A stretch of DNA of 64,000 nucleotides. It comes from an uncultured Actinomycetota bacterium. GTDB taxonomy: Bacteria; Actinomycetota; Actinomycetes; Streptosporangiales; Streptosporangiaceae. Made by a program: the position numbers and the translations under genes. This document shows, piece after piece, positions 22,061-54,228 of the stretch (position 1 is the stretch's first letter; every line of letters begins with the position of its first letter). The stretch is from assembly GCA_963808615.1 (NCBI GenBank), contig CAWEGV010000002.1:55386-119385 (forward strand). The letters run 5' to 3'. Below the pieces are notes generated by a model. That model worked only from the letters and a program-made list of their open reading frames with translations, was not told the DNA's origin and ran no database searches.

Positions 22061-25000
22061 GTGGACGGACGCTGGGAATTCTGGATCGACCGGGGCGGTA
22101 CGTTCACCGACATCGTCGCCCGCCGGCCGGACGGGCGCCTGATCGCGCACAAGCTGCTGTCCGATAACCCCCGGGCCTACCGGGACGCGGCGGTGGCCGG
22201 GATCCGGCAGCTGCTCGGCCTCGGGCCGGACGAAAAGGTCCCCGCCGAGAAGATCGGCTCGGTCAGGCTCGGCACCACGGTGGCCACCAACGCCCTGCTG
22301 GAGCGCGCGGGCGAGCCGACCGTGCTGGTCATCACCGAAGGCTTCGCCGACGCGCTGCGCATCGCCTACCAGAACCGGCCGCGGATCTTCGACCGGCGGA
22401 TCATGCTGCCCGAACTGCTGTACGAGCGGGTCATCGAGGCCCGCGAGCGGGTCGCCGCCCACGGCGAGGTCCTCACCCCGCTGGACGAGGACGCCATCGC
22501 GCAAGCTCTCAAGCAGGCCTACGACGACGGCTTCCGCAGCGTGGCCGTGGTCTGCGTGCACGGGTACCGGTATCCCGCACACGAAGCGCGTATCGGCGAG
22601 ATCGCCCGTGCGGCGGGCTTCACCCAGGTCTCGGAGTCGCACCGGACCAGCCCCGATGAAGCTGGTCTCGCGGGGCGACACCACCGTGGTGGACGCGTAC
22701 CTGTCACCCATCCTGCGGCGGTACGTGACCGAGGTGGCCCGCGAGCTTCAGGGCGTCAAGCTGCTGTTCATGCAGTCCAACGGCGGCCTGACCGACGCGG
22801 CCAGCTTCCGCGGCAAGGACTCCATCTTGTCCGGCCCGGCCGGCGGCATTGTCGGCATGGCCCGTACCGCCGCCCAGGCCCTGGTTCTTCCAGGGTCATC
22901 GGGTTCGACATGGGCGGCACGTCCACCGACGTGTCGCACTTCGCGGGCGCGTTCGAGCGCGAGTACGAAACCCAGGTCGCCGGGGTGCGGATGCGGGCGC
23001 CGATGCTGTCCATCCATACCGTGGCCGCGGGCGGCGGCTCGGTGCTGCATTTCGACGGCAGCCGGTACCGGGCCGGGTCCTACTTGGCCCGCGCCGACCC
23101 CGGCCCGGCCTGCTACCGGCGCGGCGGCCCGCTCACCGTCACCGACGCCAACGTGCTGCTCGGGCGGATCCAGCCCGGCTACTTCCCGCGCGTGTTCGGC
23201 GAGCACTCCGACGCCCCGCTCGACGCCGGAGTCACCGAGGCGAAGTTCACCGAGCTGAGCGAGCAGATCACCGCCGCCACCGGCGACCGCCGCGGCCCGG
23301 ATCAGGTCGCGGCGGGCTTCATCGAGATCGCCGTGGCCAACATGGCCAACGCGATCAAGAAGATCTCGGTGCAGCGGGGTTACGACGTGACCGAGTACGT
23401 GCTCAACGTATTCGGTGGCGCCGGAGGCCAGCATGCCTGTGCCGTCGCGGACGCCCTGGGCATGTCGAAGGTGCTCATCCACCCCCTGGCCGGGGTGCTG
23501 TCCGCCTACGGCATCGGGCTGGCCGACATCGTCGCCATGCGCGAGCAGGCCGTCGAGGCGGCGCTCACCGACGACCTGGTGGCCAGGCTGCCCGCCATCA
23601 CAGGACCGCTCGAGGCCAGCGCCCGCGCCGAGGTGGCCGGCGAGGGGGTGCCCGGCGACCGGATCACCGCCGCGCACCGGGCCCACCTGCGCTACGGGGG
23701 CACCGACACCGCGGTCATCGTCCCGGTCGGCTCGGTAACCGCCATGACCCGGGCGTTCGAGACCGAGTACACCAGGCGCTTCTCGTTCCTGATGCCCGAC
23801 AAGACGATCCTCGTCGAGGCCGTGTCCGTCGAGGTCATGGGCGCCCAGGAGCAGCTGAGCGCGCCCACCACGGACCGTTCGGCCGCACTACAAGATGCCG
23901 AGCCGGAGCGCCGGCCAGCCACGAGAAGGTCCGGATGTTCATCGCCGGGGGATGGGCCGAGGCGAGCCTGTTCCGGCGGGCCGGGCTGCGGCCCGGGCAG
24001 GCCATCGACGGCCCGGCGATCATCGCCGAGGACCTGGCCACCACCGTGGTCGATCCCGGCTGGCAGGCCGTGGTGACCGGTGCCGGCGACCTGCTGCTGT
24101 CCCGCGTCACCGCCCGGCCCGGCCGCGCCGCGGTGGGCACCGCGGCCGACCCGGTGATGCTGGAGATCTTCAACAACCTGTTCATGTCGGTCGCCGAGCA
24201 GATGGGCGTGCGCCTGCAGGCCACCGCGCACTCGGTCAACATCAAGGAGCGGCTCGACTTCTCCTGCGCGCTGTTCGACGCCGAAGGCGGCCTGATCGCC
24301 AACGCCCCGCACATGCCGGTGCACCTGGGCTCGATGGGCGAGTCGATCAAGATGGTGATCCAGCGCAACCCGCACATCCGCCGCGGCGACGTCTTCGTCC
24401 TCAACGACCCGTACCACGGCGGCACTCACCTCCCGGACATCACAGTCGTCACCCCCGTGTTCGCTCCCCGCCGCGAACAGACCGCAACGATGTCACAACG
24501 ACGCGGCTATAACCGCCTCGATGTCACATCGTGCCGCCCAGACCCCGATCCCGGGAACGAAGAGCCCTGGTTCTACGTCGCCTCCCGCGGGCACCACGCC
24601 GAAATCGGCGGTATCTCGCCCGGCTCGATGCCCGCCGCCAGCGCCCGCGTCGAGGAGGAGGGGGTGCTGATCGACAACTGGCTGCTGGTCCAGGACGCCA
24701 GGCTCCGGGAGGCCGAGACGACCGCCCTCCTGCAAACCGCCGAGTACCCGTCCCGCGACCCGGCCACCAACCTGGCCGACCTGCGGGCCCAGATCGCCGC
24801 GAACGAGCGCGGTATCGCCGAACTGCACAAGATGGTGGACCACTTCGGCCTGGACGTGGTCCGCGCCTACATGGGCCACGTGCAAGAAAACGCCGCGGAG
24901 TCCGTGCGCAGGGTCATCACCGCGCTGCACGACGGCGAGTACGAATACGAGCTCGACAACCAGGCCCGGATCAAGGTCGCCGTCCGCGTCAGCGCCGCAC

Positions 25001-25755
25001 AAAAGACCGCCGAGATCGACTTCACCGGCACCTCTCGCCAGCTGAAAGACAACTTCAACGCCCCGTCCAGCGTGGCCATGGCGGCCGTGCTGTACGTCTT
25101 CCGCACCCTGGTGGACGACGACATCCCGCTCAACTCCGGCTGCCTGCACCCGCTCAAGGTGATCATCCCGCCCGGCACCATGCTGTCGCCGGAGTACCCG
25201 GCGGCCGTCGCGGCCGGCAACGTGGAGACCTCCCAGGTGGTCACCGGCGCCCTGTACGCCGCGCTCGGCGTGATGGCCGAGGGGTCCGGCACGATGAACA
25301 ACGTGACGTTCGGCAACGAGGAGTACCAGTACTACGAGACCGTGGCCAGCGGGTCCGGCGCGGGCGAGGGCTTCGACGGCACCGACGTGGTGCAGACCAA
25401 GATGACCAACTCGCGGCTCACCGACCCCGAGGTGCTCGAGTGGCGGTACCCGGTGCTGCTTGAGTCCTACCGGATCAGGCCCGGCAGCGGCGGCGCGGGC
25501 CGCTGGCACGGCGGCCGCGGCGGCATCCGGCGGCTGCGGTTCAACCAGCCGATGACCGTCAGCACGCTGACCGGGCACCGCCGCATCCCGGCGTTCGGCA
25601 TGGCCGGCGGCCAGCCCGGCGCGCTCGGCCGCCACTGGATCGAGCACCCGGACGGCACGGTCACCGCCATGGGCGGCTGTGATTCGGTCACCGTCCGGCC
25701 CGGCGATGTCTTCGTGATCGAAACCCCCGGCGGGGGAGGCTACGGCCCGCCGTAA
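22061..25755 (+). pseudogene. 5-oxoprolinase / hydantoinase A-B fusion (OPLAH-like), three frameshifts
   Basis: [21 protein letters not shown]. Then a shift near 22640 into [24 protein letters not shown] and a shift near 22880 into [16 protein letters not shown]. Then a shift near 23915 into [10 protein letters not shown]...[20 protein letters not shown]...[13 protein letters not shown]...ASRGHHAEIGG. The summed length of about 1230 aa fits fused HyuA/HyuB. Confidence 0.85.
24484..24535. repeat. Paired TGTCACA-centred palindromes (31-bp spacing) embedded in frame in the oxoprolinase CDS
   Basis: CGATGTCACA occurs at 24488 and 24519. The reverse complement of site 1 is CGTCGTTGTGACATCGTTG, which shares the 13-mer CGTCGTTGTGACA with both sites at 54156-54206. 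Confidence 0.5.
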
Positions 25756-54129: not shown

Positions 54130-54155
54130 AACACGCCAGGGCGCAGTCCCCGAAC

Positions 54156-54206
54156 CACGTCGTTGTGACAACCACGTGGTCTGGTGCACGTCGTTGTGAC
54201 AACGAC
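54156..54206. promoter_or_regulatory. Two 17-nt direct repeats, each a TGTGACA-centred palindrome, 31 bp apart, upstream of dnaE2
   Basis: CACGTCGTTGTGACAAC at 54156 and 54187. The second extends to the perfect 19-nt palindrome CGTCGTTGT-G-ACAACGACG. Confidence 0.55.
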
Positions 54207-54228
54207 GTCGTTGGATCCGGGGCCAGAG

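Follow-up and report, generated by a model that had tools for sequence, protein, structure and literature searches.

Why should the coding sequence of a metabolic enzyme carry, in frame, a pair of near-perfect palindromes at a position where most related proteins have only a short loop? The question is raised by a fused hyuA-hyuB gene of the 5-oxoprolinase/N-methylhydantoinase type (22061..25755, plus strand, assigned from its Pfam domains), which lies in the window analysed here, a 64,000-nucleotide stretch of DNA from an uncultured actinomycete of the Streptosporangiaceae. The analysis points with high confidence to a dispersed repeat: the hyuB insert is very probably one copy of a non-autonomous, hairpin-forming element of 60 bp that has multiplied and diversified within one genus. 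Unless a contig is given, coordinates are those of the window; G000 denotes the genome of the window, other G numbers its relatives, and L numbers individual loci.

The two palindromic sites, of sequence CGATGTCACA, start at 24488 and 24519, and their spacing is exactly 31 bp. The second forms the 13-nt palindrome CGATGT-C-ACATCG, which may also be read as CGATG-TCA-CATCG. The sequence-only reading, in which both features had been pointed out, also remarked on a long loop and a low local GC content, and these observations hold as well. The TPVF and FYVASRGHH motifs are separated by 36 residues here and by 8 in 13 of 20 orthologues, and the GC fraction is 0.617 in the 60-bp element, compared with 0.691 in hyuB and 0.709 in the window. 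It had further been noted that a 13-mer in the reverse complement of the first site recurs at two sites upstream of dnaE2. The match is exact, as CGTCGTTGTGACA lies within the reverse complement of hyuB site 1 and is found again at 54158 and 54189, and the four window matches with at most one mismatch compare with 0.05 expected from shuffled sequences. Part of the identity is nevertheless coincidental, because the hyuB copy departs from the consensus of its own subfamily (B) at two bases and there matches another subfamily (A). The paired palindromes in hyuB are real and well past the level of chance.

The 60-bp element in hyuB, an exact match to the superfamily pattern and a member of subfamily B, occupies 24480..24539 on the plus strand, in frame in the HyuB domain. 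It consists of two outer arms (24480-24487 and 24532-24539), core 1 (CGATGTCACAACG, 24488-24500), a spacer (24501-24518) that contains a small hairpin, GCGG-CTATAA-CCGC, at 24503-24516, and core 2 (CGATGTCACATCG, 24519-24531), all on the plus strand. The element sits within a variable loop on the same strand (24463..24567) that is bounded by a Phe codon (TTC, 24460-62) and a Trp codon (TGG, 24568-70) and is composed in G000 of a left flank of 17 nt, the element and a right flank of 28 nt. An orthologue alignment confirmed that this is an insertion. Among 20 HyuB orthologues, 19 from genomes of the same genus and one from the same order, the 13 that lack the insert have exactly seven codons between TPVF and WFYVASRGHH (e.g., FAADGDDIWFY), whereas the G000 loop has 35 codons, that is, 28 extra residues. 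Over 52-57 nt the insert is 91-93% identical to three other copies in G000 (C6:6243, C6:101747, and C5:518815). The hyuB register reads core 1 as ATG-TCA-CAA, with C at the core centre. The subfamily B consensus, TGTGACA, would read ATG-TGA and stop in this register, so the hyuB copy, originally or after a change, kept the frame open. Folded as single-stranded DNA, the hyuB copy gives -15.5 kcal/mol (z -2.6), which is weaker than the intergenic copies, and it is therefore read as decayed. The alignment with the nearest solved structure, N-methylhydantoinase 7hk5, is broken at PVFA, where the insert starts. An AlphaFold2 model of the HyuB domain built from 11 sequences is of low confidence (mean predicted local distance difference test score, pLDDT, 50.5) and predicts residues 110-137 as coil (pLDDT <50) between strands 97-104 and 141-146; it supports just the weak statement that the insert may form a coil between two strands.

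The repeat unit is AA-N6-CGATG-N3-CATCG-N18-CGATG-N3-CATCG-N6-TT, and its 60 bp correspond to exactly 20 codons. The boundaries were taken from the position-specific composition of 115 copies, in which AA at -8/-7 and TT at +7/+8 are followed by background composition outside, while the invariance of the 5-bp core arms follows from the construction of the search. A search of the whole G000 assembly (6.09 Mb) found about eight hyuB-like copies, assigned to subfamily B (consensus AACCGCAACGATGTGACAACGAnGCGGCTATAACCGCCnCGATGTCACATCGTTGCGG, containing CGATGTGACAACGAtGCGG), and about 14 dnaE2-like copies, assigned to subfamily A (consensus AACCACGTCGTTGTGACAACCACGTGGTCTGGTGCACGTCGTTGTGACAACGACGTGGTT), which includes the dnaE2-upstream pair; in all of them the cores are 31 bp apart. 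A de novo search of G000 for perfect 5+3+5 palindrome pairs at 31 bp found no excess, because most of the G000 copies are imperfect. The hyuB and dnaE2-upstream sites had been taken for members of one family of small palindromic elements. A small dispersed palindromic repeat it is, but the two sites belong to different subfamilies and, judged from their consensus sequences, are best read as cousins within one superfamily; likewise, the pairing of the sites is real, but the actual unit is the defined 60-bp element. A sister branch, to which the dnaE2-upstream pair belongs, has cores of the form CGTTG-N3-CAACG with the same 31-bp period. When one abundant subfamily was aligned with its flanks, no conserved tail was found past 60 bp. 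The CGTTGGCGCAACG subfamily (L035 1476-1560; also L029 and L114, from the JASHVM metagenome-assembled genome, MAG) shows at least three palindromes in tandem at the 31-bp period, and arrays beyond two units therefore exist.

Beyond the cores, the arms (6-8 nt) are very different between subfamilies, with their complementarity kept. Across 117 distinct copies, Watson-Crick pairing in the local hairpins (positions 3-8 against 27-22, plus the mirror set) is found in 50-85%, compared with 26-42% after shuffling of partners, while the long hairpin (2-8/59-53 plus 22-27/39-34) retains its pairs in 55-86%, compared with 27-50%. The element can be described as a nested palindrome, which could fold either as two short hairpins or as one long hairpin. 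The centre triplets of the two cores occur in either direct (GAG..GAG) or inverted (CTC..GAG) orientation, which flipping of the loops would produce. For one intergenic copy of subfamily B, the folding energy of the single-stranded DNA is -26.9 kcal/mol (z -8.7). AA-N6 and N6-TT, the two outer arms, complement each other and constitute terminal inverted repeats, as in transposable elements of the miniature inverted-repeat kind (MITEs). No Rfam covariance model matched in the window at the gathering threshold, or in 24400-24620 at E values up to 1. The T run of an intrinsic terminator was not found after the element, with T in just about 7-19% of copies at +9 to +20; the element may have a U-tract-independent terminator role.

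The distribution of the repeat is narrow. In a sample of the 40 nearest genomes, CGATGN3CATCG-N18-CGATGN3CATCG with at most two mismatches was detected in 24 of the 25 genomes of the genus, which comprises Trebonia-like Streptosporangiales MAGs from soil and peat, at 1-61 copies each; the extremes are G014 and G020, with 0-1 copies, and G004 and G018, with about 60. It was detected in none of the 16 outgroup genomes, and a control with the reversed pattern gave approximately zero. A wide scan of 185,579 species, each represented by one genome, used the exact pattern with the fourth core base set to W, which covers both branches, and returned at least 119 loci, against about 17 chance matches expected. 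Among the matches listed, all but about six were from Streptosporangiaceae, Trebonia sp. or uncultured Actinomycetes MAGs, and the listed MAGs were from soil and peat (Microflora Danica, SPRUCE, palsa). The superfamily is restricted to one genus of uncultured soil actinomycetes, with few other holders among the matches listed. In one MAG, two copies of the same subfamily (L124 and L129, on CAWJPF contigs 24 and 11) resemble each other in their flanks as well, at about 85%, and at least some of the growth in copy number is therefore due to segmental duplication and not to movement of the element.

The sequence-only reading had proposed that such elements can reside in intergenic DNA as well as, in frame, within coding sequences. 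This dual residence was found (in frame in the hyuB, carA, gltB, and ChsH2-like coding sequences), and the phenomenon extends further, being genus-wide and involving the same protein loops repeatedly. Copies inside open reading frames (ORFs) account for 6 of 22 in G000 and 3-18 of 125 in the other genomes, and the remainder are mostly intergenic. The ORF-internal copies in G000, identified with a second gene caller and Pfam, lie in hyuB (subfamily B), in carA (subfamily B, with the GATase domain split in two stretches), in gltB (subfamily A, encoding the peptide PTTSLSQRRAPDHVDVTTTWL between LSDR and IPSLLLTGAVHHH), in the linker of a ChsH2-like multidomain protein (subfamily A, with a peptide near-identical to that in gltB), and in the C-terminal tails of an FAA-hydrolase/RraA fusion (subfamily B) and an isocitrate dehydrogenase (subfamily A). 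In other genomes, a strict test identified copies in a thiamine pyrophosphate (TPP) enzyme, a biotinyl-carrier protein, and an ATP-binding cassette (ABC) ATPase. Pfam domains are present on both sides of the insert in the hyuB, gltB, carA, ChsH2-like, TPP enzyme, and ABC ATPase hosts. The element is translated in three registers: hyuB, gltB, and the ChsH2-like protein share the reading ..TMSQRR..DVTS.., carA and the hydrolase fusion have ..QRCDN..SMSHR.., and ..VDVTS..RCHID.. is common to the TPP enzyme and the ABC ATPase.

Other repeats were noticed in the same proteins. The loop of the G000 carA gene (C5:518548-519882, outside the window; locus L182) contains, besides the 60-bp element, two perfect small palindromes, GTTTCCGCGGAAAC, which encodes VSAET, and GCGCAATTGCGC, and the VSAET motif recurs in the same CarA loop of at least six other species, often twice. 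The CarA glutaminase loop has 78-127 residues across the genus, against 54 in the single outgroup locus read. In-frame tandem peptide repeats lie near palindromic inserts in GltB (STPARTSTPART.., G000 C5:406219-411006), in the ChsH2-like protein ((PTAQD)x6, C11:180116-181783), and in the FAA-hydrolase/RraA fusion ((AQPSADR)x3, C6:101690-103381). The filled hyuB alleles L003 (PEE repeats), L004, and L018 show repeat expansion too. Repeat expansion seems to be a general tendency of the linkers in this lineage.

How the same loops came to be occupied in several species may be addressed best at hyuB. The site is filled in 6 of the 20 fetched orthologue loci, and G008, whose locus is outside this set, also has a copy inside hyuB. 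The account given most weight, with about an even chance of being right, is recurrent independent insertion at the tolerant loops of hyuB, gltB, and carA by the locally active subfamily, with insertions elsewhere purged by selection. The filled hyuB alleles do not form a clade; with the insert removed, the maximum-likelihood gene tree requires at least five changes, and an approximately unbiased (AU) test rejects a single filled clade (p ~2e-66). Two pairs of sisters, L002/L015 and L018/L019, each combine a filled and an empty allele with support of 100/100. The 120-200 nt of flanking sequence on each side track the gene tree, which rules out the transfer of a filled hyuB allele between species. 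The hyuB insert of G018 has 53 matches in its own genome (the best at 94% identity), eight in the sister G010 and none in G000, while the insert held at this site by G010 is of another subfamily, the aaccggctCGATG.TCCATCG.GCCGG type, which is dominant in G010. By sequence similarity, each hyuB insert resembles the dominant subfamily of its own genome. The gltB loop, which is empty in most genomes of the genus, holds subfamily A in G000, a different subfamily of the CGTTG branch in G014, and, in G001 (L146) and G011 (L147), in-frame G/C-run hairpins (GGGGGG..CCCCCC blocks) that are unrelated in sequence. The carA loop is similarly mixed, with subfamily B present in G000 and an element of the CGTTG branch in G009; in G006, a match to a subfamily A query adjoins the carA match, the loop itself being unread. 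The data fit tolerant loops that collect whichever hairpin repeat is active.

Several points weigh against the interpretation of the hyuB insert as a copied repeat, and the first of them against repeated independent insertion in particular. Core 1 starts exactly 25 nt past the Phe codon in L001, L002, L003, and L005, and 25+21 nt past it in L004 and L018; such a fixed position in six species is not predicted by simple random insertion. Every filled hyuB allele has 12-48 extra nucleotides on the right, outside the 60-bp unit, whereas intergenic copies show none, and about 24 nt of the G000 loop are not explained by the element. When four trial boundaries were checked for perfect direct repeats (3-10 nt), these were no commoner than in shuffled pairings, and neither were imperfect 12-mer flank repeats; with no target-site duplication or tail found, these extra nucleotides are left unexplained. 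L001 and L002, which are not sister alleles, nevertheless have similar left flanks. Because near-identical strains that differ in the presence of a copy were unavailable, transposition is inferred and was not itself observed, and no mobilising enzyme was found among Y1 transposases or among the genes enclosed by paired copies. In G000 the host gene has a broken frame, and in-frame tolerance therefore rests on the intact filled alleles of relatives. Finally, the gene calls behind the placement of the copies relative to genes are crude.

The fixed position is better accommodated by a second history, which is regarded as possible but less probable than independent insertion: one old insertion per loop, followed by many precise losses, with the resident copy overwritten by the dominant subfamily through gene conversion or re-targeting. 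The six filled hyuB alleles then share their position and register, along with common extra flanks, by descent. The gltB inserts of G000 and G014 share similar left flanks and an ACCTGA spacer while their arms differ, and in-gene copies are close to the dispersed copies of their own genome. However, this history would need at least eight precise losses on the hyuB tree, each restoring the seven-codon loop, the conserved cores of 5 bp are short for homologous conversion, and unrelated repeat families in the same gltB loop suggest tolerance and not homing. A more speculative proposal, considered rather unlikely, is that hairpin-directed copying re-targets existing copies or remnants, resulting in in-place turnover at a fixed codon position, a homing-like behaviour for a geneless 60-bp element. 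If this were true, the loops of these essential enzymes (hyuB, gltB, and carA) would be long-lived, fast-evolving peptide cassettes.

The placement of the copies bears on a third explanation, in which the palindromes are operators for a dimeric DNA-binding protein, similar to tandem NrdR boxes, and the hyuB copy is an intragenic regulatory site. The spacing of the centres by 31 bp (three helical turns), the dyad symmetry and the position of one copy 16 nt upstream of the dnaE2 start would be in keeping with such a role. According to a crude gene caller based on third-codon-position GC content and applied to 119 loci between 1.3 and 8 kb in length, the exact copies, 125 in all, lie in 43 tandem, 32 convergent, and 10 divergent spacers, inside called genes (18), and at locus edges (22), while the background comprises 419 tandem, 114 convergent, and 118 divergent gene pairs. 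Convergent spacers are about twofold over-represented among the 85 intergenic copies (chi-square ~24, 2 degrees of freedom), and divergent, promoter-bearing spacers are under-represented (10 of 85). The convergent enrichment is the pattern of repetitive extragenic palindromic (REP) sequences and argues against an operator role. Moreover, the arms vary widely within one genome, and copies occur inside unrelated enzymes. The dnaE2-upstream copy itself (subfamily A, 54153..54212, plus strand, in the imuB-dnaE2 spacer, with cores CGTTGTGACAACC at 54161 and CGTTGTGACAACG at 54192) has 13 other G000 copies at 87-98% identity, and its folding energy in single-stranded form is -21.4 kcal/mol (z -3.5). 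The distance from the imuB end to the dnaE2 start is 99 nt in G000, compared with 2-15 nt in at least six genomes of the genus in which both parts matched. Because this copy is missing from the orthologous loci, it is a private insertion of G000 and not an operator, and the operator explanation as a whole is judged very improbable. Least probable of all is a lineage-specific functional loop of the enzyme with incidental palindromes, since, even though the frame is kept open and inserts occupy this position in several species, the DNA is 91-93% identical to dispersed intergenic copies, sister species lack the insert, the peptides vary between species while the DNA palindromes are kept, and the low-confidence model predicts a disordered coil.

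The preferred interpretation, a multiplied hairpin repeat, is thus that of an element which is dispersed, restricted to one genus and covarying in its arms, which is not flanked by a target-site duplication, which prefers gene 3' ends, and of which some copies lie in frame in enzymes. A trans-acting enzyme or a replication-linked process may copy the element by recognising its hairpin with the invariant 5-bp cores. Insertions would land widely, and those in coding sequences would survive just in tolerant surface loops or linkers and in a stop-free register. The host protein would then carry at least 20 extra residues, probably without a function of their own.

Candidates for the mobilising enzyme were considered among two groups of genes. 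A search of G000 with PF01797, the Y1 transposase family, gave no matches, although such a gene may have been missed, the genome being a MAG that is 92% complete. This family is present in 12 of the 25 genus genomes as multi-copy, ordinary IS200/IS605 elements with an unrelated end hairpin, and a mobiliser of this family, including the REP-associated tyrosine transposases (RAYTs), was rejected. The genes enclosed by pairs of elements are just housekeeping genes (aldo-keto reductase, AAA ATPase, MoaA, glycosidase, and short-chain dehydrogenase/reductase) and were rejected as well. One IS200/IS605-type unit was observed in G018 (L140, G018:C9, 640-1900), with a Y1 transposase at 1450-1878 beside an ORF on the opposite strand, possibly tnpB. 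Its 3' hairpin is GGGCCTGAAGGCCC. Identical copies are found in several genomes of the genus and none in G000.

The host gene requires comment in its own right. Pfam identified Hydant_A_N, Hydantoinase_A (with profile positions 1-76 missing), Hydant_A_C, and Hydantoinase_B on the host ORF. Comparison with orthologues by tblastn and blastn located a first frame break at ~22653 (-2 nt) and a second, compensating one at ~22881 (+2 nt); the 75 codons between them are out of frame, yet they match the orthologues at 95% in the other frame. A third break, at ~23909, is a 17-nt insert in the inter-domain linker. It puts GAGAAGG 5 nt upstream of an in-frame ATG (23919), owing to which the locus could be read as a split hyuA and hyuB. 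Contigs of related strains from soil metagenomes have an additional GT at 22653 and an additional G at 23909, which would restore the frame, but these contigs are short and cannot verify the G000 assembly; they also show empty-site alleles. The breaks may be consensus errors, because the source genome is a MAG; if they are real, hyuA is dead in G000. Intact frames of 1258-1454 residues that carry the insert were found in G024, G018, G010, G011, and G003.

Among known elements, the in-frame behaviour has its closest parallel in Rickettsia. Rickettsia palindromic elements (RPEs) are described as palindromic repeats that lie in frame in unrelated metabolic genes (Ogata et al., 2000, as summarised in PMC10969869). 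RPEs resemble the 60-bp element in being small palindromic repeats of one genus, many of them in frame in housekeeping genes, that add a fold-compatible peptide, and in that no transposase is known for either. The 60-bp element is likewise an in-frame palindromic insert in unrelated genes with the frame kept. RPEs are about 100-150 bp long, reside in reduced, AT-rich, intracellular genomes and encode a conserved peptide per family. In contrast, the 60-bp element occurs in free-living actinomycetes of 70% GC, with two 5+5-bp cores, covarying arms and three registers, and here the same loops hold different subfamilies in different species. The tie to RPEs is an analogy and not a membership, as the organisms and their base composition are far apart.

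The anatomy and placement are closer to those of REP sequences and their paired, hairpin-forming arrangement (REPIN) in Gammaproteobacteria and other bacteria. These are also short imperfect palindromes, two units of which form a longer hairpin in REPINs, mostly extragenic at gene 3' ends, without target-site duplication and with many subfamilies per clade. REPIN systems typically include a single-copy RAYT (Y1 transposase) gene flanked by the repeats. In contrast, no RAYT/Y1 gene was found in G000, and the Y1 genes of its relatives are not flanked by the repeat. The 60-bp element also differs in having no GTAG-type 5' tetranucleotide, in its tandem units at a fixed 31-bp period, and in that about a quarter of the G000 copies lie inside ORFs. 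MITEs such as Correia, ERIC, and Chunjie are similarly small, non-coding, multicopy elements with terminal inverted repeats and are sometimes intragenic; however, the 60-bp element lacks a target-site duplication, is shorter than most MITEs, and has no parental insertion sequence with matching ends among the two groups examined, Y1 transposases and the genes enclosed by paired copies. Unlike operators of the NrdR-box type, the 60-bp copies are not centred on promoters, and the one at dnaE2 is not conserved at orthologues. Full-text searches on Trebonia repeats, on REPIN/RAYT systems in Actinobacteria, and on REP elements in Streptomyces yielded no description of this family, and the 60-bp repeat is apparently undescribed. 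By analogy with these systems, it combines a REP-like anatomy and placement with an RPE-like in-frame behaviour, in soil actinomycetes.

In-frame palindromic repeats have so far been treated as a peculiarity of Rickettsia, and here the same phenomenon is met in large, GC-rich genomes of free-living soil actinomycetes. The cores, the covarying arms, the length of 20 codons, the lack of a target-site duplication and the loops with differing subfamilies in sister species make the mechanism testable. The repeat amounts to a natural experiment in the tolerance and recruitment of random loop insertions by proteins, and it provides a starting point in the search for the enzyme by which REP-like hairpins are copied in Actinomycetota. 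For genome annotation in this lineage, such inserts account for odd extra segments of proteins and for seeming operators like that preceding dnaE2.

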